Origin: an uncultured Pseudomonadota bacterium
GTDB lineage: Bacteria; Babelota; Babeliae; Babelales; JAUPTZ01
Length of the DNA stretch: 64,000 bases
Reading direction: 5' to 3'
Assembly: GCA_964429275.1 (NCBI GenBank)
Contig: CAYSBJ010000001.1
Coordinates: 124,001 to 188,000, forward strand
The notes below the pieces were generated by a model. The model was not told where the DNA came from, searched no databases, and saw only the letters and a list, made by a program, of their open reading frames with translations. Shown here piece by piece: positions 12,104 to 59,368 of the stretch. A program made the position numbers and the translations under genes. Numbering within the stretch: the stretch's first letter is position 1; each line of letters starts with the position of its first letter.

Positions 12104-12106
12104 GGC

Positions 12107-12664
12107 TTAATCTTCCCAAAATTGTTTGCGTTTTTTTGTTGCTATGGTGAGTTCAAATGAGATGGTCTTTTTGCCATCCTTTTTGATTTCAAGTTCTTTT
12201 ATGTAGACAATTTCATTGTTCTCTAGTGCTCCAAGTAGGCTCACTAACGATTGGGTCGTCTGTCCTTTGAATGTGGCTGCGAGCACGATTTCATCAAATG
12301 TCTCATTGCCTTCAATATCACGTCTTTCGGTATCCCAACCAGGTTCAGCTTTTAATTTTTGGTTAGAGGTAAGCGTCTCAAAAAATGTTTTTATGTTGAA
12401 TCCTTTATTAGTTTCTAAGAGTGTTTGTACGCGCTCTTCTTCGGCCTTGATACGCTCGCTCTTTGCCATGAGCGCGTCGTTTTTTTTGCTCTGTTCTTTG
12501 AGTTCATTAATAAGCTGAATATTGCTTTCTCTTTCTACATAAAGGAAGTATACAATGCCACCCAGCATTGCTGTTATTATGCCTACTGTTGCCGCAATGA
12601 AAATTCGATGTTGCTTCTTGTGTTGCTGTGCAATGGCGTCGCTTATGGTATCGAGTAAGTTCAT
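12107..12664 (-). CDS. GspM/PilO-like inner-membrane assembly protein
   Basis: Single N-terminal TM, coiled coil and ferredoxin-like C-terminus (LVSLLGALE..IYIKELEI); ATGA overlap with the upstream GspL-like gene. Confidence 0.65.
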   Translation of the reverse strand: MNLLDTISDAIAQQHKKQHRIFIAATVGIITAMLGGIVYFLYVERESNIQLINELKEQSKKNDALMAKSERIKAEEERVQTLLETNKGFNIKTFFETLTSNQKLKAEPGWDTERRDIEGNETFDEIVLAATFKGQTTQSLVSLLGALENNEIVYIKELEIKKDGKKTISFELTIATKKRKQFWED

Positions 12665-14277
12665 GCCGTTCCTTCACGTAGTTTAAAGCAAGCAGTAAAG
12701 CTTACCCCTTTGTCAGGTAGTTGTGTTGGGTCAATCTCTTGCGTGATAGCTAACGTTTTGCTGTTTCCGATGTCGTTTGCAAGCTCAGTGAAGTGCTTGA
12801 AGTCATCTTTGCCGGTTTTTGAGCGGAATACTCCTTTGACTTCAATTGGATGTGGTGCATCATTATCCCCAATAAATATGTGTTCAATGTCTATATCGAA
12901 CTTTTTCTTGTTAAAGAGTGAGGAAAGCTCTTGTAGAATTTCGAGTGGGCGCAGGCGTTGTGCTGAAAAAGCTGCCCAAAGCTCTTCTTGTTCTTGTATG
13001 TGGGTTTCAACTGCCTTTGCAAGGGCTTTGATGTTTTTTTTCTTGGCGTCGGGAGAGTCACTTGGAAGGGCGCTGCGCAAGCGTTTTAATTCTCGTAGAT
13101 CAAGAGCTTTTATATAAGCCGTTTCTTCCTCTATTTGGAGGTACCCTTGCACTCCGATAATCCCAAGTGTGAGAAGGAACAGGAGTGCCCCAGCAATGAG
13201 CTGCTGCTGAATAAGGGGTCGCGGTGAGAGTTCCAGGTCTTTGCGGCGAAGTGTGAAGGATTCATACGCCGCAGTGCGGAAGACTGCTCCTAGGACACGA
13301 CTGTATGTTTGCCATGAAGGAGCTTGGAGAGATAATTTTGTCTGTATTACTGGATTGGTTGCGAGCTGTTCTGTTGCCAGAATTTCGTATGGGCAATGAA
13401 TAGCTTTCTTTGCATATTCTTCAAAGCGAGGGGAAATGTCGGGGGACCCGATGAAGAATAGTTTTTCTATTTCTGGCGTACTTGTTTGCTTCATTTCAAA
13501 TGAGTTGAGTGTAAAACTAACTTCGTCGAATAATCGCGCATGATGAGAGGCTAAATCAACTATTAATTCATCGCCATCATCAGATTTTGCGGGGAGTTCT
13601 GAGCCCTTGAGAATTGTTCGTGATGCGATAAGCCGTTGATTATTTATTAATGCTATACGAGTAGATTGTGGGCCCATGTCAACAATCGCGTACGCATGTT
13701 TTAGTTTGCTGTAGGCTGGAATGTGACTGAAGAGTGAAATAATACTAAAAAGGTCTATGGTCATTTGTGTTGGCTCAATATCTGCCTTATGAAGAGCGTC
13801 GAGGAGTTTTTTGACTTCCTCTTTTTGCGCTGCTACGACTAATACCGTAGAAGCCTCTTTTACTTCACTTTGAGCGAGTATTACAAAATCAATAATGGCG
13901 TTATCGAGTTTAAAAGGAATTACCGATTCCATTTCATACTCGATAACCATTCGAATTTTTTCTTCATCAAGGAAGGGGAGTGTAAGTTCTTTGACAACAA
14001 CTTTTGACGAGGGAAACGTTACTATTATTTCAGCATTTTTTTCTATTTTAGGAGCAATTTTTTTTAGCGTCGTAGTGAGGCGTTGAGTGTATGTCCGCGC
14101 GTCGCCCGGATTGATTTGATATTCTTCAAGAGCAGTAATTACGGTCTTTGTTCGCGATTCCTGGGTGTGTGCAACATGTATGGTTGTCGATTCAATATGA
14201 AGTGCCACGCGCCGTATAGGAAAAAGAGGCTTGCCTTTTATGAAGGAAGGAAAGAATAAGTTTCGTAGTACCAACAT
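12661..14277 (-). CDS. GspL-like (PilM-PilN fusion-type) assembly protein
   Basis: Actin-like cytoplasmic domain (LTLPF, VIPFKLDNAIIDF, IVDMGPQSTRI), one TM near aa 361-380, periplasmic PilN-like domain. Confidence 0.78.
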   Translation of the reverse strand: MLVLRNLFFPSFIKGKPLFPIRRVALHIESTTIHVAHTQESRTKTVITALEEYQINPGDARTYTQRLTTTLKKIAPKIEKNAEIIVTFPSSKVVVKELTLPFLDEEKIRMVIEYEMESVIPFKLDNAIIDFVILAQSEVKEASTVLVVAAQKEEVKKLLDALHKADIEPTQMTIDLFSIISLFSHIPAYSKLKHAYAIVDMGPQSTRIALINNQRLIASRTILKGSELPAKSDDGDELIVDLASHHARLFDEVSFTLNSFEMKQTSTPEIEKLFFIGSPDISPRFEEYAKKAIHCPYEILATEQLATNPVIQTKLSLQAPSWQTYSRVLGAVFRTAAYESFTLRRKDLELSPRPLIQQQLIAGALLFLLTLGIIGVQGYLQIEEETAYIKALDLRELKRLRSALPSDSPDAKKKNIKALAKAVETHIQEQEELWAAFSAQRLRPLEILQELSSLFNKKKFDIDIEHIFIGDNDAPHPIEVKGVFRSKTGKDDFKHFTELANDIGNSKTLAITQEIDPTQLPDKGVSFTACFKLREGTA

Positions 14278-14279
14278 AA

Positions 14280-17273
14280 CTATCTACTTCCGAATAAAGA
14301 TTGTAAGCTGCTGCTCGTACGTGAAGGCGCTGCTTGTGTGTTTGACTGTGTATTGCGCTCTCCTGTTGAAAGGAGATTTTTTATTCCTGATCTGCGGCCG
14401 AGTACAAAAGAGCTGGCTTCTTTTTCGTCTGATTCAGGCGTATCTGGCGCGCCGTACTTTTGTTCATATTCAGCAGGAGACATCTCTTGGATTTTTTCCG
14501 TCTCTACTGGCTTGGTAAGTAGCTCGCCGAGCGAGTGGTGCGATAGCAGTGACCGAAGTTTTGAGCGTTTTTCAGAGAGCGCCTGGTCCACATCAAATAT
14601 AGCAATACTTGCCGGCTCATTGTCTGATGGAGCGGTCGCTTGTTGTGTTTCAAGAACAACTCTCTCTGGGATAGCTTCCTTAATAATTTGAGGTGTCGAT
14701 GTTTTCGTTGCGGCCTTCTCTTTGTTGGTATTTTTTTGAATGACTGCTTTCGGTGCCTCCACTTCAATTTCGTCCTTGTCTCGAGCGTCTCCTTCTCCTT
14801 CTTCTTCTTCTTCTTCACCTGAGGGGCGAGCTTTTTTTGCAGGCTCTTTGGCTTTTTTAGGTTTATATTTTTGTATGTATTCCTGCGGTGACGATTCCGT
14901 GTTATCGATTCTAAATGTTTCTTCTTTAGCCGTGTCTGCTGTTTGACTGCGATAGTAAGGATCAAAGCGTACGTCGACGTTATTCGGTTGATACCGAGCA
15001 TTAGCAAAATCGATAACTTTGTGCGAATAATTTTCTCCACTCGCATTGAAAAACCAGTTGTATAACGGATCGTTTGTTTTCACGGTTTTTATGGCTTCTT
15101 CTGTTTCTCTTGCTGCCTGATGTAATGCCATCTTCGTGTACATGCCAATACCAGGTGTTGTTCGTGGCTTAAGAATGGTTGGGCATAGGAATAGGAATAA
15201 ATACGATTTATTTACTGTGCGATTAAGGTTTTTAGCTATCCAGCCCAAAATTGGAATAGAGCCAAGGAGAGGTGTTTGCCCGCCTTTATCACTTATTTTT
15301 GTTTGAATGAAACCGCCAGTTACTAATACTTGTCCGTTCGCAACCATTACGGTTGAGTTGAGAGATTTTGCTTGTACTGTAAGGTTGCCCGTCTCTGGTA
15401 CGAAATCTTTTATTTCGGTGTGTATTTTGAGGCGAATTACCCCGTCACTATTTACTTGGGGAGTGAATGTAATGGTGGTATTTGCATCTTGCTGCGTTTT
15501 GCCTGTTAATCCTCCGGATCCGCCAGTTTGTTGCGTCTCGACCCAACTAGTACTACCGACCACAAGCTTTGTCTCAGTGCAGTTTGCGGCTACTGCAAAT
15601 GGTTGCGACAGTACTGTTGCATCCGTTTCTGTTTTAAGAGCTTGAAGTACTCCCCAGATTCCGTTGCTACTGGCAGCATTGCCTAAAGCAACTACCGATG
15701 ATCCGGTTCCTAGTGCGAGGGTAGATAATACGTTCCCCAGGATACTTTGAGTATTTCCTGTACCATCTGTAGTGAGAGCTGGAGAATTTATTGAGGCGCT
15801 TTGGGCCGTAACGCCACCACCAATACTATTTTGGTTTGGGGATCGCATTTGTCCACCAAGATTCATTAATGATGAAGCCGAGATGCTAACAATAAGCATC
15901 TGCATGGCGACTTGCGCTTTTGCAACATCCAGTTTTTTAATGGTTTCCTTGAGAAGAAGCCAGTCTGTTTCATCCGCGCACGAGACAAGCAATCGATTTC
16001 CGTCCTTGTCTGCTTGGAAGGTCATATTTTTAAAGTACTTTACACCATCACGTATCGCGCCGTATTGGCCTGCTTGTTTGCCGATCGATGAAGACTGTGA
16101 CGAGTCACAAGCGCTTTTTAGAATGGCGACCATATCTGCGGCATCTGAGTTTTGTAGATTGTAGATTCGAAGTGGTGATTTGGCTTGCTTAAGTTCTGTA
16201 TCAAGGTGTTCGACGATAAAGTTTTTTATTTTTTCCACTGATTGTCGCTGTCCCATCAAAATGAGCTTGTTAGTTCGCTCTTCAGGGATCAGCCTGGTGC
16301 CGGGCGTGAAGTATTCACTTGAATCTTGTGGTTTACCGAGCAACTTTGCCAGTGGGTTTACATCTTTAGAGGTAATAAGAGAATCAAATAAGGTTTTAAT
16401 GTCAGTCGCATTTGCTTTTTTGAGCTGCATAACATACACAGATTCTTCGACGCCAGTTTGATCAAGTTCATTTATTACGCGTATGGCAGCTTTAATGACG
16501 CACGAGCAGTCAGTGATAATAAATCCGTTAATATTTGCAGGCGTCATGATTGTTGCGCCTTGACTTAACATGCTTTGTAGAAGGTCTTTTACTTCGGCAG
16601 CAGGTAGATTGTTGAGTAGTGCAATATAGCGAACGGTGGCATCAGAATCAGGTAAAGTATCTGGTTTGACGCCAATGAAGGTAGGTAGTGGTTGGCGGAA
16701 TTTTTTATCTTTTGAAATCACGCGGTACAAGTTACCGATTTTTACAATACTGAGATTGGACATTTCGAGCACAGTCAAAAATGTATTCCATGCACCAGTT
16801 TTGCTTATTGGGTTACGAAAGTTGAGTGATATTTTATTCCCCGCAATTGACTTATCAGGAATGATATTCATTGATTTGATATCAGCAATGTACTCGACAA
16901 AGTTTTTAAGATCGGCGTTTTCAAAATTTAAGTACACGTCTTTTTTTTCATCGACAGGGCCAAAAAGGTCCGGGTTGCCGATTGCTTCTTTTGTTAGTAA
17001 TGACTCATTCGATACACTTGCGGAGGGTGATGCCGATAATATCTCATCATCAGGAATCGATGACTTTTCCTCACTAGTAGACGCGTTTTGAGGTTGTCTA
17101 TCAAATTCAAATTCGATAGGTTCAAACGGAACGCCTTCCTTGCTGAGGTTGTCAAATTGATTTTCTGCTAGCGCGGACTCTCCATTTAAGAAGTCTTCAA
17201 ATGGAAAACTGCTTACAGAAGAAAGCTGTAAGCATGCAATGAGCGCAATGGTAAAAATGTTTTTTTTATTCAT
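14280..17273 (-). CDS. gspD: Type II secretion secretin GspD, copy 1 (long acidic C-terminal tail)
   Basis: LNFENADL N0 domain, PEERTNKLIL, QVAMQMLIVSI, PLLGSIPILGWI, LFLFLCPTIL. Confidence 0.9.
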   Translation of the reverse strand: MNKKNIFTIALIACLQLSSVSSFPFEDFLNGESALAENQFDNLSKEGVPFEPIEFEFDRQPQNASTSEEKSSIPDDEILSASPSASVSNESLLTKEAIGNPDLFGPVDEKKDVYLNFENADLKNFVEYIADIKSMNIIPDKSIAGNKISLNFRNPISKTGAWNTFLTVLEMSNLSIVKIGNLYRVISKDKKFRQPLPTFIGVKPDTLPDSDATVRYIALLNNLPAAEVKDLLQSMLSQGATIMTPANINGFIITDCSCVIKAAIRVINELDQTGVEESVYVMQLKKANATDIKTLFDSLITSKDVNPLAKLLGKPQDSSEYFTPGTRLIPEERTNKLILMGQRQSVEKIKNFIVEHLDTELKQAKSPLRIYNLQNSDAADMVAILKSACDSSQSSSIGKQAGQYGAIRDGVKYFKNMTFQADKDGNRLLVSCADETDWLLLKETIKKLDVAKAQVAMQMLIVSISASSLMNLGGQMRSPNQNSIGGGVTAQSASINSPALTTDGTGNTQSILGNVLSTLALGTGSSVVALGNAASSNGIWGVLQALKTETDATVLSQPFAVAANCTETKLVVGSTSWVETQQTGGSGGLTGKTQQDANTTITFTPQVNSDGVIRLKIHTEIKDFVPETGNLTVQAKSLNSTVMVANGQVLVTGGFIQTKISDKGGQTPLLGSIPILGWIAKNLNRTVNKSYLFLFLCPTILKPRTTPGIGMYTKMALHQAARETEEAIKTVKTNDPLYNWFFNASGENYSHKVIDFANARYQPNNVDVRFDPYYRSQTADTAKEETFRIDNTESSPQEYIQKYKPKKAKEPAKKARPSGEEEEEEGEGDARDKDEIEVEAPKAVIQKNTNKEKAATKTSTPQIIKEAIPERVVLETQQATAPSDNEPASIAIFDVDQALSEKRSKLRSLLSHHSLGELLTKPVETEKIQEMSPAEYEQKYGAPDTPESDEKEASSFVLGRRSGIKNLLSTGERNTQSNTQAAPSRTSSSLQSLFGSR

Positions 17274-17295
17274 ATTTTATACATCCTTTGGTCAC

Positions 17296-18429
17296 TCATA
17301 ACACTCGCCGATTTGGCGCTCGGTTACGCATATCATCGAGTATTTTTTTGCGCATTTCTGCAACTGCTGCATCGTGTTGCTCGGCCGTGCGATGGACTTG
17401 ATCGAAACGACGACGAGTTTGTTGCCGTTGTGCATCTTTTCCGAGCTGGAAGAGGTCACTTGGCGCCTGATTTTTTGTCGCGTCTTTGCTGCCTTCGGCG
17501 GAGCCAAATGGTGATGGCTTTTCAATTCTCTTGAGCAAGTAAGATAAGTCTACATTCTTACCATCGCGTGTGAGGGAGAGGTGAATATAATCGCCGAGAT
17601 TAAGTCCAGCAATAGCATCATATATAGCAATTCGTTCTTTTGAGTTTGTGGCTCCTAAGTTGTTTACTTTGGTAATGATGTCGCCAGAAACCAAGCCTAA
17701 CTTTCCACCAAGAGTATTATGTTTTAGTGAGCCGATAGCAATACCAATAGCCTTCCCGTCTTTATAGGCACTGCAGAGGTCAAGAGCTTCTATTACTTCC
17801 CCTACGCTTGTTATCTCTTTAGTTATTTCTACTGGGTCTAGATGGTAGAGTGAATCATCAATTTTTTTAATTGCCGTATCCCACGATGAAAGACCTGGAT
17901 TTAATTTCTCTGGTTTGCGAAGATAAAAGGTTTCCTGTTGCCCGTTTGCACGAATAATAAGCATTTGATTTTTGATTATTTTAAGCACTTGTCCATCATT
18001 AATTTTGTCGCCAATATGATACATTTGCTCCTTGCCGGTGGAGTCGGCTACCATCACAATGCTATTCTTTGGTTGGGGTGACATGATTATCCCTTTGACC
18101 GTTGCATCGAGCGGAGGAATAAAGTCGACTCTTTGGTTTTTTGTCGGAACAGCAGCGTTTTTTACATTGAGTTGCGGAATTGGAGTGACAAGACTTTTAG
18201 ACACCGGTGCTGGTTCTGCAGGCGGGGAAAAAGTGTCAAAAAGATCGTTTTGATAGATCTTTTCCGGCGTCACGATAATGCGCGGAGGCTTTGCTTCTGT
18301 TTGTAGAGAAGCACGACGTTTATTTGAGGTTGTCGGAAGCTCTTGTTTTATAAGTTGCGCAATGGTAATGCTGATGACTGCAAGCACGACAAGAGTGCTA
18401 TTTATAATCCACAACTGCTGTTTTACCAT
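17296..18429 (-). CDS. gspC: Type II secretion protein GspC-like (TM + HR + PDZ)
   Basis: N-terminal TM, HR-like VKGII...YHIGDKI, PDZ-like LGLVSGDIITKVN; directly upstream of gspD. Confidence 0.8.
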   Translation of the reverse strand: MVKQQLWIINSTLVVLAVISITIAQLIKQELPTTSNKRRASLQTEAKPPRIIVTPEKIYQNDLFDTFSPPAEPAPVSKSLVTPIPQLNVKNAAVPTKNQRVDFIPPLDATVKGIIMSPQPKNSIVMVADSTGKEQMYHIGDKINDGQVLKIIKNQMLIIRANGQQETFYLRKPEKLNPGLSSWDTAIKKIDDSLYHLDPVEITKEITSVGEVIEALDLCSAYKDGKAIGIAIGSLKHNTLGGKLGLVSGDIITKVNNLGATNSKERIAIYDAIAGLNLGDYIHLSLTRDGKNVDLSYLLKRIEKPSPFGSAEGSKDATKNQAPSDLFQLGKDAQRQQTRRRFDQVHRTAEQHDAAVAEMRKKILDDMRNRAPNRRVL

Positions 18430-18463
18430 ATCAATACCTTTGCATGCCAAAATATTCAGAGTC

Positions 18464-44606: not shown

Positions 44607-45665
44607 ATGTATAATTTTTTTTTGCTTATAGTGAGTATTATTTCATTTGATGCATCGTTAGTGGCAATGAATAGTCTCAATACATACCGTGATGAGCTTG
44701 GTTCTGCTCTTGCAGTCACTAATTCAGTTTTGGGACGCGCATCTCAGTTAAGAAGCGGTCCTGCGCTTGGCATTTTGCGTTCTGCGCAGTGGCATGACTA
44801 TCTTTCTGCAACGCAAAACCGTTCTGCCTTGTGGCGTGATAAGATGGGGTATTATTTTATGGAAAATGAAATTGTCTCGTTTGCTGATCGCTGTTATGTT
44901 TTGCCGCCAAATGAATTGCCATTGTTGTATGCCACTGCTGCTCAATATGCCCAAAAGTTGGGCATATTGGTGCCTTTATTGCTTTTGGTTGATGATAGCA
45001 AATTAGTTGATGCAACAGCGGCCTGTTGGTCCTCAAACACCGGATTTGTGGTTCTTGGTCGGGGCTTGTTCGAGGAAATGAGCGAAGCAGAATTTTGTGG
45101 TGTTCTTGCCCATCAAATGGCAGTGGTGGCTGGGCGTCATCAAGCAACAATGGCTAAGTCTTTCGTGCCAGTATTCCTAGTAGGCTTAGTAGCTATGCTC
45201 TATTCAGTCAGTAAGCTGCGCGGGAGTGATCAGACAATTTCGCTGCGGCGAGGCGTCGCGTGCCTTGGAATACTTGGCTTTTATGGTGCAATTATGGGTA
45301 TCTATTGGGGCATTCTGGCTCGCCACTGTGAGTATAAAGCAGACGTACTGGCAAGTTCTGTTAGTGCTAGGAATGGTTTAGCGATGCTTGAGGCGTTTGA
45401 CCGTTTTTATCAAGAAAACATGGGCGGTGATTTAGCCGTTGTGCGAGAGATTGTTTCGAACGACCTCCCTTACCTTTCAGCGCAAGATGAGCATAGGGCT
45501 GGCGAATTCATAGCGGGTATGGAGGCTCTTTATGTTGTGGCTCGGAAAGAAAATGATGCGGTTGGCAGAAGCTTTTTCTCTACTCATCGGTCACTTAGGT
45601 TGCGTAAAGCTTTTTTTAAAAAGGCAATCGCCGATCAGGCAGTAGAGCCTATTCCTGCCCCTTGA
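44607..45665 (+). CDS. M48 peptidase-like protein with degenerate active site
   Basis: GVLAHQMAVVAGRH (HExxH lost), CEYKAD, FSTHRS; signal peptide. Confidence 0.7.
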   Translation: MYNFFLLIVSIISFDASLVAMNSLNTYRDELGSALAVTNSVLGRASQLRSGPALGILRSAQWHDYLSATQNRSALWRDKMGYYFMENEIVSFADRCYVLPPNELPLLYATAAQYAQKLGILVPLLLLVDDSKLVDATAACWSSNTGFVVLGRGLFEEMSEAEFCGVLAHQMAVVAGRHQATMAKSFVPVFLVGLVAMLYSVSKLRGSDQTISLRRGVACLGILGFYGAIMGIYWGILARHCEYKADVLASSVSARNGLAMLEAFDRFYQENMGGDLAVVREIVSNDLPYLSAQDEHRAGEFIAGMEALYVVARKENDAVGRSFFSTHRSLRLRKAFFKKAIADQAVEPIPAP

Positions 45666-46098: not shown

Positions 46099-46205
46099 AT
46101 TTTTCTACTATTGAATTTTATTGTAAGAAGCGTATTATTGTACGCAGTATAACACGATTATAGTCCTTAATGGTACAACCTCCTCACTTTACCAAGGGTA
46201 AACTC

Positions 46206-47255
46206 ATGTGCTATAGATCAACCAATAGCCTACTTGCCGTTTTAGGATGCTTCAGTTTTCTTTCAGGGTGGGCTCTGCACCTTAAGGCGCTTTCAGACCA
46301 AGCAAGCCAAAACATATACTGGGACGATATTTCTGCGAGTATGTCTCAGCCAAATTCCGCCCTTGTCCGGCTAAAGGGAATAGAAAACCCAGCCCTTTTG
46401 AGTATAGTTTTTGACGCTGAGTGGGCAATTCATCACGGTAAACAGCCGACTTTTTCTGAGGCCATTGGCCGTAATTTTCTTTTTAACGCAGTTTCTTCCT
46501 TGGGGACGTTTGTTGTTCTGCATCCCGATGATGCGCCGCGCTTGCATGAGCTGGTTGACGAATTATCCCAGGCTATGAAAATTAAAAAGCCGATGATCAT
46601 TTACTCTGACATCGGTCTTTTTAACGCCTTTGCGACTGGCCTTTCATCAGATAATTCTTGTATAGTACTTTGCCGTGGGATGCTTGAAAAAATCACTACA
46701 GAAGCAGCTTTTGGGGTTGTTGCTCATGAAATGGGCCATATAATGCATAATCACACGAAAAAGAAGCTTATAGCCGTCTGCAGTATGGGTGTTGCTATGA
46801 CGGCGCTTTTTATGCAAGTGGTTCATGCCGCATGTGCTGCTGATAAAAAAGGTCCTGCAATGTTGCGGGGGGCCGCTCAGTGCTTTTCCTTTGGTCTGTT
46901 GTGTGTTGGCTTTGAACTTTTGTATGCCCGACGTTGCGAACGCGAGGCAGATCAGGCTATGGGAACCTATCTGAGGGATAAAGGGCGTACGATGCTGCAG
47001 TCTATGCTGAACTACGAAAAAAACGCTAATCATACTGATGCACTAGCGGTGGCGGATTTTATGAAAACGCAGCGGTTTAGAAGCCTGACTGCTGCTCAGC
47101 AATTAGAGTTTAAGACTCGCCTTTCTCAGGGGAAATTGTGGGTGAATAATAACCATAATTGCCGCGGACTTAATGCCTTGTTCTCTTCGCATCCAAGCAC
47201 CCAAGAACGACTGTCTCGATCGCTAGAAGAATTTGCTACGGAGCAGCCTGCATAG
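46206..47255 (+). CDS. M48 (HtpX/Ste24-like) zinc metallopeptidase, intact active site
   Basis: FNAFATG, VVAHEMGH, EREAD, SSHPSTQERL. Confidence 0.88.
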   Translation: MCYRSTNSLLAVLGCFSFLSGWALHLKALSDQASQNIYWDDISASMSQPNSALVRLKGIENPALLSIVFDAEWAIHHGKQPTFSEAIGRNFLFNAVSSLGTFVVLHPDDAPRLHELVDELSQAMKIKKPMIIYSDIGLFNAFATGLSSDNSCIVLCRGMLEKITTEAAFGVVAHEMGHIMHNHTKKKLIAVCSMGVAMTALFMQVVHAACAADKKGPAMLRGAAQCFSFGLLCVGFELLYARRCEREADQAMGTYLRDKGRTMLQSMLNYEKNANHTDALAVADFMKTQRFRSLTAAQQLEFKTRLSQGKLWVNNNHNCRGLNALFSSHPSTQERLSRSLEEFATEQPA

Positions 47256-52631: not shown

Positions 52632-53453
52632 TCAAGCGTTTGCTGGTTTCTTCGCTGCGGCCTTGCTTAATGCTATTTTTGTGGCGGCTAAAACTTCAAA
52701 AGGTGAGCGGTAACCGTCAAAACAGAGTCGCTTGATTAATACGGCGGCAGGGATGCCGGCGAGTATGGTGCCGCCGATGATAGGGAGGACGAAGTCGCTT
52801 TTGCCGTAAAAAGTCCCCCCAAGAACTGGGACGATGGGGCTGCGAAAGCCAAGTGCATTATTAATTATGGATTCAATTATTGTCATGAGGATAATTTTGG
52901 TTACTGCCCAGCCGGTATCAATAGCCAATTGGCCAGCGACTCCTTGGCCTCCATTTTCGCTACGAATTTCTCGAATTCTGCTTTTTGCCATAGCGACGCC
53001 GAGGGCAAGGAGGAGTGATCCTAGAATGACAGCCCCTCCCATCCAAAAGAATGGAGCCTTTTTTTGCATGCTCAGGTAGCCTGGGACCTCGCAGACCGCA
53101 ATGTTGGGGTTGTCTTGAAAAAACTCTATAAGCTCAGACTTTTCGATGGTGAATGTGTTGAAATTTCTGTCGGTGGTAGAGATGGCAAAAACCTTTTTTT
53201 TCTTGTCATAGAGGAGTGTGCCGCAAAAATCCTTAGCTCGCTGATCGTACAAGGCGATTACTTTACCTTGTACGTAGCTACGGAGCCGACGACCGGTTTT
53301 TGGGTCGGTCCCGAGTTCCTCGATGACAAATTTAGCTTGGCCTTTGGTTCTTGCCATGGCCATTTCAAGCGGGGTAGGCCTAGCGATTGTGCTAAAGCTG
53401 GTGATGGCTAGAAAGAGCAGGGGGAGGAGGCTGTGCAGCATGCTTTTTTTCAT
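52632..53453 (-). CDS. Hypothetical exported membrane protein (paralog of 55863-56642)
   Basis: Signal peptide, QGKVIALYD...F.GTL domain, C-terminal hydrophobic helices. Confidence 0.72.
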   Translation of the reverse strand: MKKSMLHSLLPLLFLAITSFSTIARPTPLEMAMARTKGQAKFVIEELGTDPKTGRRLRSYVQGKVIALYDQRAKDFCGTLLYDKKKKVFAISTTDRNFNTFTIEKSELIEFFQDNPNIAVCEVPGYLSMQKKAPFFWMGGAVILGSLLLALGVAMAKSRIREIRSENGGQGVAGQLAIDTGWAVTKIILMTIIESIINNALGFRSPIVPVLGGTFYGKSDFVLPIIGGTILAGIPAAVLIKRLCFDGYRSPFEVLAATKIALSKAAAKKPANA

Positions 53454-53716
53454 TAATTTTTCTTTCGATAAAGCAATAAATATGCATAAATTCTACACTA
53501 TTTGAGTGTTTTGTAAAAACCTTCTGAGGGAAGGGGAGCGCTTCGCTTGATCTTGATGTTTTTCGTATGGCTCCTGCTGAGCATCTGAAGGGGGCGTTCG
53601 GTTTTCTGTCGAAAAAGCTGCTGGGGTCAAAATAGCGGATTGTGTCTTGTGCTTTGCTTTTTTGATTGTTACGATTACCCCATCTCACTATAGCCAATAA
53701 ATGTGTAAGGAATTTT

Positions 53717-54220
53717 ATGAAACTAAAATCTTTCGTGTTGGGTTTTTGCGTCGCTGTTGTGGCCCCTTCTTTTGTGTTGTCTTCTGACGGGTCTATGGAG
53801 CTCTGCAAGGCGATTTTGTCGCCGGAGGATTGTTTTAAGCTTGGACTTACGGTAGAGCGTTGCGCGTCTGATTTGCGCGAAGCAATTGGAGAAGCAATAA
53901 GACGGCGGCCTATTTTTTCTAGAGATCCGAAGGTATTTATGACAAATGGCGAGGTGAGAGGTCTTCCCTTGTACGGACAATGCAAGATCTATGTAGAGTA
54001 TGTGGGGGATGCGTATCAGAATACCTACGTTGTACTGGAAGGATCGGACCTTTGCACTCGATTTAGTCTGTTTTATCGTGTTGCTACTACTACGCTTGAT
54101 TCGCGAGGAGCCATTCATTTAAAGGAGCCTAACCAGATGGATCTTCATCGCCAAGTCATCGTGCGTTACCGAGTTTTTCCTCCTGAGGTTTTTGAGCATG
54201 CATTTAATTCTCTCTCCTAA
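53717..54220 (+). CDS. Hypothetical exported protein
   Basis: AAGGA RBS, MKLKSFVLGFCVAVVAPSFVLS signal-like N-terminus. Confidence 0.65.
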   Translation: MKLKSFVLGFCVAVVAPSFVLSSDGSMELCKAILSPEDCFKLGLTVERCASDLREAIGEAIRRRPIFSRDPKVFMTNGEVRGLPLYGQCKIYVEYVGDAYQNTYVVLEGSDLCTRFSLFYRVATTTLDSRGAIHLKEPNQMDLHRQVIVRYRVFPPEVFEHAFNSLS

Positions 54221-54315: not shown

Positions 54316-54358
54316 AAGAAAGGAGCCAGCGTTTAGATGCTGGCTCCTCTTCATTTTT
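54316..54358. terminator. Probably bidirectional intrinsic terminator
   Basis: aggagccagcgt (54321-54332) / atgctggctcct (54337-54348) stem between convergent genes, with T-rich runs on both strands. Confidence 0.7.
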
Positions 54359-54391: not shown

Positions 54392-55729
54392 TTAGGGCTT
54401 GGTTGTCATCATTTTTTTAACTTCAGAAAGGTGAGCCTGATAGATTTTAAGTTCTGCCTTGCGCTGCGCTATGTTTCGCCTATAAAAGTCGGCTTGCTCT
54501 TCCAAGGTTAAGTCTGTTTCTCCTATTGTCTTTTTAGCACGCTCAATTCTTCCGGGAGACGAGTAGGTGCTGCCTACACTCCCGTCACTGTAATCATTAT
54601 CGTCATCATCTGAGCTGAAGATTGGATTTTTCAATGCTGTTTCTACAGCTTCCAGGCTTTTCATTGCTCCATTCATCCCTCTCGTGAAAGGCGAGGTTTG
54701 AGGCGTGCCTTGAGGTGTATGTTCGGTTCTTGGGGGAGTTGAGAGACTCCAAACCGCTTTATTGAGTCCTGGCGAGTCTTGAGCTCTTGGTGGCCGACGG
54801 CTACTTCCGGGTGCCATGCGAGAAAGGTTTTTTGAGACTTTTGTTCTTTGTGGTGTTACGAGGCCATGGCTGGTTGGCGTCCGGCCCACAGCCTGATCGG
54901 TCTGTTTAGGTGGCGATTGTTGCAACGGAGAAATGTGTACAGATCCCAATGTATTTTGCATTTCTAGCGTGGCTGGGCTTTTCGGGTCGATGCCGCATGG
55001 GGTTATAGGGCTTATGTCTAATTCTTTCCGAGCGGGGGTGTTTCCTGTTTGGACGCTCGTTGTTTTAGAGGCTTTCGAGTTTAGCGCGATACTTATGACT
55101 TCTACTTGGCTACGCAGGCTGAGTTGATTTGGGGGTAACGTTGGCTTCTCTGGCGCTACATTTTCTGTTTGTGTGCCGATTTCTTCTCGAGAAACTTTGA
55201 TGATCGGGGTTGGTTCGGCTTCTTGGATGAAAGGAGTGATTGCCAAGGTCGCTTCTGCTGTTTGCACGCTCATTTCTTCCGGCGTCTGCTTGGGAGGCTT
55301 TGGCGGCTCGACCATTAGTAGTGGCGGAGAACTTAGTGTGGTCACACTATCAGTTTGAATGCCTGTTTCTTGCAGAATTGCTTTGGACGCTTGTGGTTGA
55401 TCAGGTGTGTAGCCTGAGTTTTGACGTGACTTATAGAGGGCCAAAGCGCTGATGAGGGCAAAGGCGGTGCTACTGGCTACTTGCATCGTAACATTTGGTG
55501 AAGAAGCCCCTCTGGCGAGGTTTCGGTTTTTCTTTTGAACGAGACGCAGGAGCGCCGTGCGCTTTTCTTTGTTAAAGGCTAGCTCGAGCAAGCCGATTGT
55601 TGCGGCGGTGCCGCTGACGATACTAATGGTGCGCCAGGGGTTGCTTGGATCTTGAGCTTTACTGATGAGAGATGAGGTTGGAAGTGCGGTAATAATGAGT
55701 AGTAAAAAGGCGTTTTTTGATTTGCCCAC
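54392..55729 (-). CDS. Exported, membrane-anchored disordered protein with repeated LC8-type QT motifs
   Basis: GTG start, signal-like N-terminus, two hydrophobic segments, long S/T/P-rich region, C-terminal coiled coil. Confidence 0.75.
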   Translation of the reverse strand: MGKSKNAFLLLIITALPTSSLISKAQDPSNPWRTISIVSGTAATIGLLELAFNKEKRTALLRLVQKKNRNLARGASSPNVTMQVASSTAFALISALALYKSRQNSGYTPDQPQASKAILQETGIQTDSVTTLSSPPLLMVEPPKPPKQTPEEMSVQTAEATLAITPFIQEAEPTPIIKVSREEIGTQTENVAPEKPTLPPNQLSLRSQVEVISIALNSKASKTTSVQTGNTPARKELDISPITPCGIDPKSPATLEMQNTLGSVHISPLQQSPPKQTDQAVGRTPTSHGLVTPQRTKVSKNLSRMAPGSSRRPPRAQDSPGLNKAVWSLSTPPRTEHTPQGTPQTSPFTRGMNGAMKSLEAVETALKNPIFSSDDDDNDYSDGSVGSTYSSPGRIERAKKTIGETDLTLEEQADFYRRNIAQRKAELKIYQAHLSEVKKMMTTKP

Positions 55730-55862
55730 GGTTCTTTCTCCATAGAATTTAATTGTTTGAGGTTAGCGGCGATTAAAATGGAGGGTAGAACGATTTTAAG
55801 TGGGGTAAGTAGCTAGGGAGAATAACAAAAAACGCTTATAAAGCAAGTGTCTTTATCATTTC

Positions 55863-56642
55863 TTAGTCTATCATGAGGGCGGTTTTTGTGTGCTTGATCG
55901 CTTCAGCAGGGTCCTTGTAGCCAGGAGCAAAAAAATCTCTTAAAAAGAGAAGGGTCGATGGGCCAAAGAAGAGAGGTCCGACTATGAGAGGTACTACTGC
56001 ATGGTCTGTGCCGTGATAACTATACGTTGTTCCTAGTGTCGCTAAATAGAGTTGGCTACCGGTGGTGCCAGTAAGTGCTTCGATTCCTAGGTACATAAGT
56101 ATGAGCGCGACAGAGCGCATGATGTCTTTCCCTATTTCTTCATTAATGTTGCAACCTTGTTTTAATTGAAGCTCTTGGTAGCGTTCTTTTGTTGCGTACA
56201 CACCAAGTACCGTCAAGAGACCGCCAGCTACCGCGAGTGCAGCTAAGCTCCGTAGTTTGTTTTTGTGTGCCTTCTGGTAGGCAGGAGTTGGGCATCCAAT
56301 TATTTGGGGATTTTGTGCACAAAAGGCCGTTAGGTCAGCGCTAGAAATTAGTTTGGTGGTGTACCGACCAAGGGGATCTTTTGTCGAAAGTGCAAGACGG
56401 GGAGAGTGTGCATCTTGAATGAGCGTTCCAGAAAATGACTGGCTTTGTGTATCATAAAGGGCGATGACTGGCCCCTGTATGTAGACTGTGGCCAGGAGCT
56501 TTGATGATGATTGTTGCAAAAAGCTAAAAGCACCGGTGCCAGTGTTTTGTGCAAATATCTCCTGAAAATTGTCTGCATTGTTTGAGACGGCAACTGTGAT
56601 CAAAAAAATAAAAAAGTTGGTAGTTAGAGTGGTCCGGGCCAT
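55863..56642 (-). CDS. Hypothetical exported membrane protein (paralog of 52632-53453)
   Basis: Signal peptide, QGPVIALYD...F.GTL domain, C-terminal hydrophobic helices. Confidence 0.72.
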   Translation of the reverse strand: MARTTLTTNFFIFLITVAVSNNADNFQEIFAQNTGTGAFSFLQQSSSKLLATVYIQGPVIALYDTQSQSFSGTLIQDAHSPRLALSTKDPLGRYTTKLISSADLTAFCAQNPQIIGCPTPAYQKAHKNKLRSLAALAVAGGLLTVLGVYATKERYQELQLKQGCNINEEIGKDIMRSVALILMYLGIEALTGTTGSQLYLATLGTTYSYHGTDHAVVPLIVGPLFFGPSTLLFLRDFFAPGYKDPAEAIKHTKTALMID

Positions 56643-56662: not shown

Positions 56663-59368
56663 TTATTTACTGACGTCGCCCCAGTTGGTGCCGGTGCGAA
56701 TAGAGACCTCAAGAGGTACTAGCCAACCGGTAACGACGCTGCCCATGCACTCTTTGATGAGGGGCACGAGGGTATTAACATCTTCTGGTTGAGCGGCAAT
56801 TAAAAGTTCGTCGTGGATTTGTAATACGAGATGTGCGTTCATATTTAACTCCTTGATCTTGGCATCAAGTTTCAGCATGGCCATTTTGATGAGGTCGGCA
56901 CTTGTGCCTTGAATAGGTGTGTTTATGGCGACGCGACGCTCAGCCTCTTGTAGCGTTCGGTTGCGCTCATGAAGTCCGGGAACATAGCGGCGCCGGCCGA
57001 GGAGAGTGCTGACGTAGCCGACTTCTTTGGCCTCTTGCACGGTGCGCTCCATCCACTCTTTAACCCCAGCGTACTGGTTAAAGTAGCTTTCAATATAGGC
57101 CTTTGCGCTTGCCGGTGAGATGGAGAGGTCTTTAGATAGGCCAAACGGGGTAAGGCCATACATGATACTAAAGTTAATCTTTTTCCCAACAGCTCGCTGA
57201 TCCGGGGTTACCGCTTTTTCTTCCACACTGAAAATGAGGGCTGCTGTTTGCGCGTGAACATCTTTGTGCGCCGAAAATGCTTGCAGCAACGCCTGGTCTT
57301 GGCTGAACTGTGCCAAAATACGAAGCTCGATTTGAGAATAATCGGCGGAGATGAATACGTATCCCTCTGGGGCTACAAAAGCATGCCGAATGGAGCTGCC
57401 AATCGGAATGTTTTGGAGATTGGGGTTAGTGCTGGATAGGCGCCCGGTCGCGGTAATTGTCTGTGTATAGGTGGTGTGAATTTTACCGGTGCGTGGGTTA
57501 ATTTCCTCTGGCAGAGGTAAGAGATAGGTGTTCAGTAGTTTACTGAGCTCACGATAATGCATGATCAGCCCCGGAACCGGGTGTATTTTGCTGAGCTCGG
57601 TCAGGACTTCGCTGTCGGTCGAGCGGCTACCAGTTTTGGTATTTTTCTTGAGAGCGGGCAATTTGAGTTGGTCAAAAAGAAGTACTTCAAGTTGCTGCGG
57701 CGAATTAAGATTGAGGGATGGTGCAACAATCATTTGCTGGCCGCCGTGTAGGCACGCCAGTATCTTCATGGTAATATGTTCTAACTCTTCCTGCGTCTTT
57801 GCGGCGATTTTTTGCATGAGTGGCACATCGATATTGATGCCGAACTCTTCCATTTCCCACAAGAGGCGCGAAAGCGGGAGCTCTACGTTGTCATACAGGC
57901 TTTGAAGAGCCGGGTCTTGCGCCAATTTTTTGGATAGTATCTTAAATAACTGCCAGGTTTGGCGGGCATCATTGGCTGCATACTGACTTGCAGGGATTAT
58001 TTCGATATCAGCAAAGGTTTTTTTTCCTTTTACTAACGCCTCGTACTCAACCATTTCTTCATGGAGATGTCGACTTGAAAGAGCTTTGAGTCCAATGCTT
58101 TCGTTGCCAGTGCGGAGTAAGCTTGCGATGATGAGGGTATCGCCGATGACGCCATTGAGATGGATGCCATAGCGGGCAAAGCCGGCCTGATCAAATTTGG
58201 TATTGTGGAACACTTTGGGGATGGAAGGGCTGCTCAGGAGTGGTTCTAATGCGTTCAGAACGGTCTCGCGTGGTAGCTGATCTTCTCCAGTTTTGTGACC
58301 AAAAGGGATGTAGTAGCCTTCGGTTTCATTAAAAGCGCAGGAAACGCCAACTACTTCATCGCGGAATGGCTGTAGTGAAGTGGTCTCAGTGTCAAAAGCG
58401 ATGCACGACTCTTGCTTGAGTTTGTCGATGAGGGTTGCGAGTTGTGCGGTTGTAGTTACCAGATGAGCCGTGAACTGTGGTGCTGGAAGCTGTTGCTCGC
58501 TGTGAGGAAGTGCAGTGGGCATACCAGTGACTCCGTTCGGAAGGAATGGGCGCATCTCGTACCGCCTGAAGAAAGAGGCTGCCTCGATCCATTTGCTTTT
58601 GTCGTAGAGGCTTTGCGCCCCATCAAAATGGGTGGCATGGTATCGTAGTGTAAAGAGAGATGCACTTAAAAACGCCTCCTCTTTGCTTGCCGTTAAAAGT
58701 TCCTGAACTCGTTTGGGTGTTACGGTAGCTAGCGATGCATAGAGATTTTCGATGGAATGGTAATGCTGCGCCAGTGCTTGCGCTGTTTTTGCCCCAATCC
58801 CTTTTACACCAGGAATATTGTCAGAACTATCGCCAAGAAGGGCGTGATAGAGCAGCAGATCTTCCGGTGCAAACTGGCGTTCGGCGATAAACGATTCATG
58901 AGTTATGGTCGCTTGCTTAAATGGATCGAAGATGCTTACGTGTCCATCGAGGAGTTGGTGTAGATCTTTGTCGCCGGTGACAACAACGATCGGGACGCCT
59001 TCGTGCTCGCGTATAAGGGAGTACATGATATCATCTGCTTCCAGGCCTGGCTTGGCGAGTTGTGCGACGCCGATTGTGGTAATGAACTCTATGATGGCTT
59101 CTTTTTGGGTGATCAGATCGCTTGGTGGGGTCTGGCGTGTTGCCTTGTAGGCTGGGTATTCGGCATGGCGGATTGTTGGTCCTTTGCTGTCCCATACTAC
59201 GATGAGATTTTTTGGGTCGAGGTCATCAGTGATCTTTTTGAGGGTGCGGCAAAATCCATAAATAGCATGGGTCGCCATGCCACTGGTGGTATGGAGCGGT
59301 TTTACCCCGTAATACGAGCGATAGAGGAGTGATGACGCGTCAATGATGTAAAGAGCGGTTGGTTTCAT
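56663..59368 (-). CDS. polA: DNA polymerase I
   Basis: 5'-3' exonuclease (EADD, GDSSDNIPGV), 3'-5' exonuclease (FDTET), polymerase motifs DYSQIELR, K..NF..MYG, QIHDEL. Confidence 0.97.
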   Translation of the reverse strand: MKPTALYIIDASSLLYRSYYGVKPLHTTSGMATHAIYGFCRTLKKITDDLDPKNLIVVWDSKGPTIRHAEYPAYKATRQTPPSDLITQKEAIIEFITTIGVAQLAKPGLEADDIMYSLIREHEGVPIVVVTGDKDLHQLLDGHVSIFDPFKQATITHESFIAERQFAPEDLLLYHALLGDSSDNIPGVKGIGAKTAQALAQHYHSIENLYASLATVTPKRVQELLTASKEEAFLSASLFTLRYHATHFDGAQSLYDKSKWIEAASFFRRYEMRPFLPNGVTGMPTALPHSEQQLPAPQFTAHLVTTTAQLATLIDKLKQESCIAFDTETTSLQPFRDEVVGVSCAFNETEGYYIPFGHKTGEDQLPRETVLNALEPLLSSPSIPKVFHNTKFDQAGFARYGIHLNGVIGDTLIIASLLRTGNESIGLKALSSRHLHEEMVEYEALVKGKKTFADIEIIPASQYAANDARQTWQLFKILSKKLAQDPALQSLYDNVELPLSRLLWEMEEFGINIDVPLMQKIAAKTQEELEHITMKILACLHGGQQMIVAPSLNLNSPQQLEVLLFDQLKLPALKKNTKTGSRSTDSEVLTELSKIHPVPGLIMHYRELSKLLNTYLLPLPEEINPRTGKIHTTYTQTITATGRLSSTNPNLQNIPIGSSIRHAFVAPEGYVFISADYSQIELRILAQFSQDQALLQAFSAHKDVHAQTAALIFSVEEKAVTPDQRAVGKKINFSIMYGLTPFGLSKDLSISPASAKAYIESYFNQYAGVKEWMERTVQEAKEVGYVSTLLGRRRYVPGLHERNRTLQEAERRVAINTPIQGTSADLIKMAMLKLDAKIKELNMNAHLVLQIHDELLIAAQPEDVNTLVPLIKECMGSVVTGWLVPLEVSIRTGTNWGDVSK

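Follow-up and report, generated by a model that had tools for sequence, protein, structure and literature searches.

LC8-like QT motifs under selective conservation in the disordered tail of a membrane-anchored Dependentiae protein: a tentative case of LC8 mimicry

A 445-amino-acid, fast-evolving protein of an uncultured Candidatus Dependentiae bacterium has two hydrophobic segments behind a signal-like N-terminus, and its long disordered tail carries four short QT motifs resembling those bound by the eukaryotic hub protein LC8 (DYNLL). The observation of such motifs in a membrane protein of the exported type, made initially from the sequence alone, is confirmed here, and the motifs turned out to be selectively conserved, while the surrounding tail has diverged. 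Mimicry of LC8 ligands by the tail of this presumably exported protein appears to be the best reading of these features, although it falls short of being probable.

The Source Genome and the Surroundings of the Gene

The source genome (1.2 Mb, 98% complete) belongs to the Dependentiae, a phylum of obligate parasites of eukaryotes whose hosts are protists. Obligate dependence on eukaryotic hosts is described for the phylum in PMC6561590 and PMC4776705, the former of which also regards the signal-peptide proteins of Dependentiae as effectors. Since the organism belongs to such an obligately eukaryote-dependent group, the presence of a eukaryote-directed motif is biologically reasonable. At the same time, family searches of its own genome returned no match to Dynein_light, to Pkinase, or to the FHA domain, so neither a bacterial partner nor a kinase readily suggests itself for a TQT site. 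A reading of TQT as the substrate of a bacterial Hanks kinase and the ligand of an FHA domain, which calls for the bacterium's own kinase and reader, was rejected on the same grounds.

The gene occupies positions 54392..55729 on the reverse strand of the window, i.e., of the whole 64-kb stretch of DNA analyzed, with the stop codon included, as given by the ORF list and the translation. It begins with GTG and is preceded, 8 nt upstream, by a Shine–Dalgarno-like GGAG (55738..55741, reverse strand) read from the sequence. Between the gene and a convergent ORF of 184 aa lies a hairpin with a 12-bp stem (54321..54348), likely a terminator common to both. The gene is present in a single copy in the genome and is flanked by two paralogous genes for signal-bearing membrane proteins. 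In the genome harboring its close homolog, the ortholog is found at the equivalent place, after a 259-aa gene and polA.

Architecture of the Protein

The signal-like N-terminus (aa 1-25; 55655..55729, here and below on the reverse strand) comprises a basic n-region, a hydrophobic core, and SKA followed by QD, the cleavage site having been judged by eye. Hydrophobicity (Kyte–Doolittle, 19-residue window) peaks at aa 7-25 (1.65), 34-52 (1.54), and 80-98 (1.62), bearing out the signal-like N-terminus and the two hydrophobic segments of the initial annotation. The first segment (aa 34-52; 55574..55630) is rich in small residues and overlaps, at aa 30-48, a sub-threshold Pfam match to DUF883_C, a glycine-zipper family (E 0.0096, 16 bits vs. 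a cut-off of 27). It is separated from the second segment (aa 80-98; 55436..55492) by a basic loop (aa 53-79; 55493..55573) in which eight K/R and one acidic residue were counted; this loop is kept in the homologs as well as in the paralogs sharing the N-terminal module.

The hydrophobic segments are followed by a P/T/S/Q-rich disordered tail (aa 105-346; 54692..55417), recognized from the AlphaFold2 model and from its composition (13% P, 12% T, 11% S, and 8% Q) and containing, besides the QT motifs, numerous S/T-P sites. AlphaFold2 predicted no secondary structure for aa 123-346, in agreement with the disorder noted initially, at a pLDDT of ~25-35, a low confidence that is expected anyway for an alignment of two sequences. 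The motifs thus reside, like those of LC8 clients, in a region of predicted disorder. Further downstream, the pairwise alignment with the close homolog revealed a conserved acidic and serine-rich island, FSSDDDDNDYSDGSVGSTYSSP (aa 371-392; 54554..54619). The protein ends with an amphipathic helix (aa 405-443; 54401..54517) modeled by AlphaFold2 at aa 409-443 with a pLDDT of 56-75. In its best heptad register, 8 of the 11 a/d positions are strongly hydrophobic, and the same register of the homolog has 7 of 11; hence, the terminal helix of the coiled coil claimed earlier holds, and the coiled coil itself is a candidate. The full-length protein had no match in NCBIfam, and a PDB sequence search with it returned 0 matches at E <= 10.

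The QT Motifs, Their Spacing and the Role of Chance

The four motifs were found exactly where the initial annotation had placed them: QETGIQTD (aa 120-127, Q125; 55349..55372), EEMSVQTA (aa 151-158, Q156; 55256..55279), EEIGTQTE (aa 182-189, Q187; 55163..55186), and KTTSVQTG (aa 222-229, Q227; 55043..55066). Together, they span nt 55043-55372, and their cores IQT, VQT, TQT, and VQT all belong to the LC8 anchor class. The glutamines are spaced by 31, 31, and 40 residues, so the 31-residue periodicity proposed earlier is exact for the first three motifs of this protein, but the close homolog, with intervals of 31, 12, and 38, has not kept it. Tandem Repeats Finder detected no tandem DNA repeat in the gene, and only 22-nt stretches encoding the motifs recur at a 93-nt spacing, with a mutual resemblance of 73-77%; a tandem DNA repeat as the source of the period was therefore rejected.

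Shuffling of aa 101-372 (n = 20,000) gave a mean of 0.53 [TVI]QT sites and P(>=4) = 0.0018. The density of such sites amounts to 9.0 per 1000 aa vs. 0.43 across a crude set of 951 ORFs, and the protein ranks at the top of this set by composition-corrected enrichment (P = 0.0028). Still, the motif count alone is not decisive, since ~2.6 proteins would be expected by chance at that level among 951 ORFs. It is the conservation tests that place the QT motifs beyond chance.

Conservation of the Motifs in the Homologs

The family is a small one. A word-indexed search retrieved the protein itself and one homolog, a profile search gave three matches, HMMER against 1.84 billion representatives gave two matches at E <= 0.001, and genome searches located the family in 2 of 41 relatives and in 2 of 261 Dependentiae genomes. 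Its known members besides the protein itself are one close homolog (59% identity) and one distant relative, so few that a deep alignment is out of reach.

Conservation of the QT motifs in homologs had been suggested initially as a check on their significance, and they came through it clearly. Compared with the close homolog, 28 of the 32 positions of the four octamers are identical, whereas aa 101-372 as a whole share 46%; permutation of four random octamers gave P = 6e-5 for the observed identity. Motif 1 is identical at 8/8 positions and sits in an invariant island of 10 residues. Motif 2 (7/8) differs by A->I at +2, motif 3 (7/8) by T->I at -1, and motif 4 (6/8) retains an invariant SVQTG. 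The change in motif 3 is the only one to affect an anchor, and the resulting triplet still belongs to the LC8 anchor class. Each of the tail's three longest stretches without a substitution (10, 7, and 6 residues) coincides with a QT motif, while the linkers vary freely, with a deletion of 19 residues between motifs 2 and 3. A motif conserved amid diverging disorder, as is typical of the LC8 class, is therefore what the comparison reveals.

The pattern is also evident at the codon level: dN amounts to 0.042 in the octamers vs. 0.463 for the remaining tail, i.e., it is 11-fold lower, and dS of the octamers (0.32) is at the polA baseline (0.34); therefore, it was the peptide, rather than the DNA, that selection acted upon. 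The C-terminus of polA shows 96% identity between the two genomes and the neighboring 259-aa gene 84%, as compared with 59% for the 445-aa protein. Such fast divergence, together with the narrow distribution of the family, is more typical of proteins operating at the host interface. For the distant relative (P0004, 406 aa, E 5e-5), an alignment was possible over residues 3-132 only. Its non-alignable tail contains a QT cluster of its own, consisting of IQT, TQT, and TQT plus SQT (shuffle P = 0.010).

Fit of the Motifs to the Published LC8 Rules

According to section 9 of PMC6607443, the LC8 anchor has Q at position 0 and mid-sized residues of the T/V/I type at -1 and +1. Flanks compatible with binding have a polar residue at -4, a large one at -3, and D/E/P at +2; they avoid a bulky aromatic at -2, an internal proline, and an accumulation of charge. 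The anchor alone is insufficient for binding, as illustrated by the 32 non-binders included in Table S4 of the same paper. The flanks were therefore compared with tallies made by hand from this table, which covers 79 validated binders and the 32 anchor-bearing non-binders. All four anchors read [TIV]QT, and 13/79 of the tabulated binders have I or V at -1. The residue at -2 belongs to the pair G/S in 4/4 motifs and in 39/79 binders. Each of the four motifs has a polar residue at -4; E at this position is recorded for 4/79 binders vs. 4/32 non-binders, and the EE pair at -5/-4 of motifs 2 and 3 for 0/79 binders and 2/32 non-binders. The residues at -3 are T, M, I, and T in motifs 1-4, the T of motifs 1 and 4 being shared with 11/79 binders and 8/32 non-binders.

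At +2, the motifs display D, A, E, and G, so that D/E is present in two of them, whereas A and G (motifs 2 and 4) are found in 2/79 tabulated binders each. The isoleucine at +2 in motif 2 of the homolog is hydrophobic, and a hydrophobic +2 is counted as unfavourable for LC8 binding in section 9 of PMC6607443. The octamers are free of proline in 4/4 cases, in spite of its high share in the tail. The best likeness was noted for QETGIQTD, which coincides with the known binder QERAIQTD at 6/8 positions and with the binder KDTGIQVD at 5/8 (Table S4 of PMC6607443). An LC8 consensus given in PMC3078936 includes [DS] at -4 and K at -3, a part represented in 0/4 motifs. Overall, the flanks of the QT motifs match the published LC8 rules only partly.

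Comparison with Known LC8-Binding and Dynein-Directed Proteins

The similarity of the tail to multivalent eukaryotic LC8 clients is multifaceted. Like ASCIZ/ATMIN, RSP3, GKAP/DLGAP1, 53BP1, and Bassoon, as presented in PMC6607443 and PMC10046861, it bears several [TIV]QT octamers in disorder, with a helix of the coiled-coil type near the motifs and with the motifs standing out as conserved islands between divergent linkers. The lengths of these linkers fall inside the range known from LC8 clients, e.g., dASCIZ, with linkers of 30 and 41 residues (PMC10046861). Unlike those clients, the protein is bacterial and possesses a Sec-type signal and two membrane segments, and its motifs are devoid of the D/S at -4 and the K/R at -3 frequent in eukaryotic ones. 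The EE at -5/-4 likewise distinguishes it from the 79 binders tabulated in PMC6607443, and its binding to LC8 is a prediction. Pfam and PDB sequence searches indicated no sequence homology to any LC8 client.

Viruses offer well-documented examples of LC8 capture via copied TQT motifs. The ASFV protein p54 is anchored in a membrane too, and its LC8 site serves dynein-based transport. Viral binders in Table S4 of PMC6607443 include rabies/Mokola P, ASFV E183L/p54, Ebola VP35, papillomavirus E4, HHV-7 U19, and rotavirus VP4. The putative LC8 capture considered here would similarly employ a parasite-encoded copy of a short linear motif of the host. The viral proteins are made in the host cytosol, whereas the bacterial one must cross its own envelope first, and those in Table S4 of PMC6607443 have one or two sites, as compared with four in the 445-aa protein.

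Among bacterial proteins, the closest parallel is offered by the chlamydial Inc proteins. These are delivered by type III secretion and have a bilobed hydrophobic domain, in which a short loop connects two transmembrane segments. The 445-aa protein differs from them in both respects: its hydrophobic segments are set apart by a 27-residue loop with eight K/R and preceded by a Sec-type signal, and its genome gave no match to FHIPEP, the type III marker. It had no match to the Inc family in Pfam or NCBIfam either. For one Inc protein, DYNLT1 is the reported target (a 2015 study in the reference list of PMC6803327), so that here, too, a membrane-anchored protein of an intracellular bacterium has been proposed to engage a dynein light chain; that light chain is DYNLT1, not LC8, and the motif is a different one.

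No bacterial protein with demonstrated LC8 binding turned up in a search of the open-access full-text literature, which is not proof of absence. If the LC8 reading is true, motif mimicry of this universal eukaryotic hub extends to bacteria, the almost unstudied Dependentiae gain their first concrete host target, and membrane-anchored proteins can be placed at the host interface in a Sec/type II-dependent manner. If it is false, the protein is a clean case of a disordered bacterial protein in which strong purifying selection maintains short linear motifs.

Possible Mechanism and Alternative Explanations

Under the LC8 reading, the signal-like N-terminus would act together with the two-helix hairpin and its strongly basic loop to put the tail outside the bacterial cytoplasm, from where it might get to the host side via surface exposure, vesicles, or type II-like secretins, which are encoded within the window. 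A dimer of host LC8 would then bind each [TIV]QT motif as a beta-strand, and such dimers, together with the C-terminal helix, could zip two chains into a ladder. The outcome would be either the coupling of the bacterium, or of its compartment, to LC8/dynein complexes or the sequestration of the LC8 hub. The initial annotation's proposal of a host-directed LC8 recruiter is partly supported: it is strengthened by the conservation of the motifs and by the Dependentiae source and weakened by the partial fit of the flanks, by the unkept 31-residue period, and by the periplasmic position predicted for the tail of a protein staying in the inner membrane. A more specific version, which we regard as rather doubtful, envisages an LC8-ladder scaffold exported by Sec and a type II-like system (not by type III or IV) as the first bacterial multivalent LC8 client. 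Its N-terminal module of ~110 residues would be a swappable anchor, fused also to cysteine-protease-like and long helical domains, and the module-bearing proteins a Sec-dependent analog of the chlamydial Inc proteins.

Substrates of type II secretion are normally not membrane proteins. For a protein retained in the inner membrane, with a cleaved signal and eight K/R in the loop, the positive-inside rule would make the tail periplasmic. A serious possibility, therefore, albeit one we would not call likely, is an ordinary lineage-specific envelope protein anchored in the inner membrane, whose QT segments serve as docking or assembly strands, e.g., for an outer-membrane or secretin-associated protein, and resemble LC8 ligands by convergence. 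It accords with the only partial match of the flanks, with the paralogous membrane-protein genes on either side, and with the shortage of delivery machinery: the genome, 98% complete, gave no match to the type III marker FHIPEP (SctV/FlhA), for which the control was positive in 4/14 genomes, nor to the type IV marker VirB4 and the type VI marker VipB. The recurrence of the N-terminal module on unrelated tails and in a near-tailless form, as would suit a generic membrane anchor, is in line with it as well. What it lacks is a known candidate partner, and it has to accommodate a specific motif class ([TIV]QT, G/S at -2, polar -4, no proline) recurring independently in the tail of the distant relative. 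The many [ST]P sites and the disorder were judged unusual for a periplasmic protein, and the very fast divergence (59% vs. 96% for polA) and narrow distribution are better suited to the host interface.

Eukaryote-directed motifs with a partner other than LC8, e.g., threonines phosphorylated by a host kinase and read by a phospho-threonine-binding domain, are considered improbable. The invariance of T at +1 in the four motifs of both species, the acidic residues before three of them, and the many additional S/T-P sites of the tail conform with this explanation, and double phosphorylation of TQT is known from the activation loops of Hanks kinases (PMC6593474). But the bacterium itself has no Pkinase or FHA matches, no common reader preference is seen at +3 from the T (V, A, V, and T), and the conserved window reaches five residues upstream of Q, as in an LC8-bound strand, instead of being centered on T. 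Least probable of all, and very unlikely in our estimate, is the absence of any motif function, with the QT sites being relics of old internal repeats in a T/Q-rich low-complexity tail that seem conserved owing to the closeness of the genomes. The single close homolog, the 73-77% likeness of the motif-coding 22-mers at the 93-nt spacing, and the composition-corrected P = 0.0028, which is not significant genome-wide among 951 ORFs, are compatible with relics, whereas the 11-fold reduction in dN of the octamers at equal or lower dS, their permutation P = 6e-5, the empty Tandem Repeats Finder output along with the unkept spacing, and the QT cluster of the distant P0004 argue against them. Of these readings, LC8 mimicry is tentatively preferred.

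Proteins Sharing the N-Terminal Module

The module made up of the signal, a transmembrane segment, the basic loop, and another transmembrane segment is shared with proteins bearing unrelated tails, namely one of 619 aa and a helical one of 421 aa, and it constitutes, with almost no tail, a 140-aa protein in another Dependentiae genome. This near-tailless version suggests an ordinary envelope module sooner than a host-targeting one. For the 619-aa paralog, considered as a putative otubain/OTU-like protease in a side lead kept out of the evidence, the homolog search yielded the ortholog only, and the AlphaFold2 model had a mean pLDDT of 33. The OTU family gave no match, and PDB searches gave nothing relevant, the one match being to an unrelated ribosomal protein (E 0.73). 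The same paralog displayed a Pfam match to C65 (otubain-like) at E 0.03, below the cut-off, and the C65 search of the genome gave E 0.015, with the control matching in 3/14 genomes.

Organization of the QT Gene and Its Product

The genome (1,207,998 bases in 8 contigs, 98% complete, with the window within contig 1) carries a single copy of the QT gene, an ORF of 445 codons on the minus strand (54392–55729) with a GTG start and, as read from the sequence, a GGAG 8 nt upstream of it. A hairpin with a 12-bp stem (54321–54348) follows its stop codon. The sole named relative of the product (P0001) is annotated as [quoted passage not shown]. The gene is real and fast-evolving, and the protein is membrane-anchored and largely disordered. 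The signal-like N-terminus and two hydrophobic segments reported in the initial annotation correspond to Kyte–Doolittle peaks at aa 7–25, 34–52 and 80–98 (means 1.65, 1.54 and 1.62). Counted on the sequence, 8 K/R residues fall in the loop separating the second and third peaks, and the positive-inside rule would place the tail outside the cytoplasm.

The AlphaFold2 model, built on a two-row alignment, has no secondary structure over aa 123–346 (pLDDT about 25–35, a low confidence partly expected from so shallow an alignment), in keeping with the proposed location of the motifs in a disordered region. A C-terminal helix is modeled at aa 409–443 (pLDDT 56–75); in the best heptad register of aa 405–443, 8/11 a/d positions are strongly hydrophobic, as are 7/11 in the same register of the homolog from a second genome of the genus (G004). 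The helical part of the terminal coiled coil claimed earlier is retained, and the coiled coil itself is a candidate.

Conservation of the QT Motifs

The four [TVI]QT sites of the minus-strand product were found with the contexts and coordinates originally noted: QETGIQTD (Q125), EEMSVQTA (Q156), EEIGTQTE (Q187) and KTTSVQTG (Q227). Three more QT dipeptides (KQT at Q148, KQT at Q276 and PQT at Q344) lack the LC8-type anchor. At least four sites arise in shuffled aa 101–372 with P = 0.0018, and the site density is 9.0 per 1000 aa vs. 0.43 in a crude set of 951 ORFs of the genome. After correction for composition, the QT protein is the most enriched of the 951 (P = 0.0028, a level at which ~2.6 of the 951 are expected by chance), so the count by itself weakly exceeds chance.

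Two giant minus-strand ORFs outside the window, of 8608 aa (G000:C1:9175-35001) and 5290 aa (C1:469503-485375), harbor 17 and 11 sites, respectively, i.e., ~2 per 1000 aa or five times the genome mean, probably a composition effect.

The evidence decisive for the motifs exceeding chance is their conservation. Homolog searches returned one close relative, 59% identical, from G004 (P0003/P0006), and a distant one, the 406-aa metagenomic P0004 (E 5e-5), alignable over residues 3–132 only. Between the two genomes of the genus, identity amounts to 96% at the polA C-terminus, 84% in the neighboring 259-aa gene and 46% in the tail (aa 101–372), and the octamers agree at 28/32 positions (P = 6e-5 vs. 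four random tail octamers), so the conservation check set beforehand had a positive outcome. QETGIQTDSV, EEMSVQT and QTENVA are the longest stretches of the tail without any change; motif 4 lies inside the invariant SVQTG. Nei–Gojobori estimates give dN of 0.042 for the octamers vs. 0.463 for the remaining tail, and the octamers match the polA baseline in dS (0.32 vs. 0.34); therefore, the constraint is on the peptide, not on DNA or RNA. The four QT-centered octamers are shown to be under strong purifying selection, as in short linear motifs.

The linkers are free to vary: a stretch of 19 residues separating motif 2 from motif 3 is missing from the G004 homolog, whose spacing is 31, 12 and 38. 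The 31-residue period is thus present in the QT protein (Q125/156/187) but not conserved in its homolog. The tail of P0004 cannot be aligned, yet it contains IQT, TQT, TQT and SQT (shuffle P = 0.010).

More conserved islands (TPCGI, HISPL, SPGLN, SPFT and an acidic/serine run, FSSDDDDNDYSDGS) are scattered over aa 237–392 of the tail (54554–55020, minus strand), along with numerous S/T-P sites; all of these may represent further short linear motifs.

Comparison with Known LC8 Ligands

The motifs were compared by hand with the positional rules in section 9 of PMC6607443 and with its Table S4, which lists 79 LC8 binders and 32 anchor-bearing non-binders; a passage of the same paper stresses that non-binding is common among TQT peptides. 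All four anchors belong to the accepted class (I/V at −1 in 13/79 binders of the table), G/S occupies −2 in 4/4 motifs (39/79 binders), −4 is polar in 4/4, D/E is at +2 in motifs 1 and 3, and proline is absent from all octamers vs. 13% in the tail. In the same table, motif 1 matches the binders QERAIQTD at 6/8 and KDTGIQVD at 5/8 positions, and SEVGTQTS and VSRGTQTE each agree with motif 3 at 5/8. The spacing falls in the known client range, exemplified in an excerpt of PMC10046861 by the LC8 client dASCIZ with linkers of 30 and 41 residues.

Other features speak against LC8. By the table's counts, E at −4 occurs in 4/79 binders vs. 4/32 non-binders, EE at −5/−4 (motifs 2 and 3) in 0/79 vs. 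2/32, and T at −3 in 11/79 vs. 8/32. At +2, motifs 2 and 4 have A/G, and motif 2 of the G004 homolog has I; the [DS]K part of an older consensus, as quoted from PMC3078936, occurs in 0/4 motifs.

If the LC8 reading holds, the QT protein would work like the multivalent clients and viral binders of Table S4 of PMC6607443; Pfam, NCBIfam and PDB sequence searches returned no homology to any of them. Searches of open full text turned up no demonstration of LC8 binding by a bacterial protein: “LC8” in PMC2475511 is the gene name legLC8, and DYNLL1 in PMC6803327 is a proximity-labeling match at the chlamydial inclusion. Identity with an Inc protein was ruled out, since the bilobed domain is absent and a type III system is missing from the genome.

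N-Terminal Module on Other Tails

The N-terminal module comprises ~110 residues in the order signal, hydrophobic segment, basic loop and second hydrophobic segment; it is also found joined to different tails and was matched in 5/261 Dependentiae genomes. A 619-aa protein encoded ~5.5 kb past the window end, adjoining a T2SS-F gene (G000:C1:193500-195359, i.e., L006:1004-2860, minus strand), matches it with E 2.4e-4 in one search and 0.004 in another. Its P/T/A-rich linker leads to a C-terminal domain marked by GYCGWRA, a conserved Cys motif, and FHYDRY, a His motif; its only family match is a sub-threshold one to the otubain family Peptidase_C65 (E 0.03; model pLDDT 33), which carries no weight in the interpretation below, and the 619-aa proteins contain zero [TVI]QT sites. 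A 421-aa protein of another same-genus genome, G003 (L009:1474-2739), joins the module and a P/T/A-rich linker to a long region that is helical and coiled-coil-like; the QT cluster is absent from it, and the QT gene itself from that genome. A 140-aa version in another Dependentiae genome (G167) is almost tail-less.

Possible Partners of the Tail

Mimicry of LC8 ligands is ranked first, tentatively, because the motif class is specific and recurs independently in the distant P0004, known LC8 clients share the layout of multivalent motifs plus a helix, the bacterium resides within eukaryotes and no bacterial TQT partner system is encoded in the genome. Under this reading, the tail would reach the host, with LC8 as the putative partner of the motifs. 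The conservation tests sharpen the LC8 interpretation, which is plausible at the level of sequence. The main rival, a periplasmic tail docking on a bacterial partner, has nearly as strong a claim: it is favored by the topology, by the absence of an injection system (FHIPEP, VirB4 and VipB each had 0 matches in the genome) and by an anchor module of generic appearance. Searches of the genome for Pkinase and FHA domains gave 0 matches each, as did that for Dynein_light.

A eukaryotic partner other than LC8 is considered unlikely. Still more improbable is a functionless repeat relic; no tandem DNA repeat was detected in the QT gene, where the recurring pieces are 22-nt motif-coding stretches only. 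Should LC8 mimicry prove true, the already known mimicry of this motif by pathogens would here be performed by a bacterium.

Genomic Surroundings

Dependentiae (TM6) are described in parts of PMC6561590 and PMC4776705 as obligate protist parasites or symbionts with reduced genomes, relying on Sec export, encoding numerous signal-peptide proteins with a presumed action on the host, and having type II secretion, including two copies of gspD, as part of their core. Three secretins are encoded in the genome. Two of them, GspD-like with N0 domains, are in the window (9629–12100 and 14280–17270), adjoined by a PilM/GspL-like gene (12661–14274) and a GspC-like gene (17296–18447), all on the minus strand; this type II secretion-like cluster (9629–18447) agrees with the two core gspD copies reported for TM6.

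The QT gene is located between polA (56663–59368) and rpmA/secF. It is flanked by paralogs encoding signal-bearing membrane proteins (52632–53453 and 55863–56642, minus strand; 31% identical, E 4e-24) with a signal-like N-terminus, glycine-rich hydrophobic C-terminal halves and no family match. Among six family genomes searched, the paralogs occur in two, G000 (the genome of the window) and G004, which are also the two encoding the QT protein. The convergent 184-aa ORF (53666–54220, plus strand), which shares the hairpin at 54321–54348 with the QT gene, has no family match either; an internal Met begins its signal-like sequence, MKLKSFVLGFCVAVVAPSFVLSS. Elsewhere, the window encodes a clostripain-family C11 peptidase (6925–8376, minus strand) and two M48 peptidases (44607–45662 and 46170–47252, plus strand), classes also among the listed putative host-degrading factors of Chromulinavorax.
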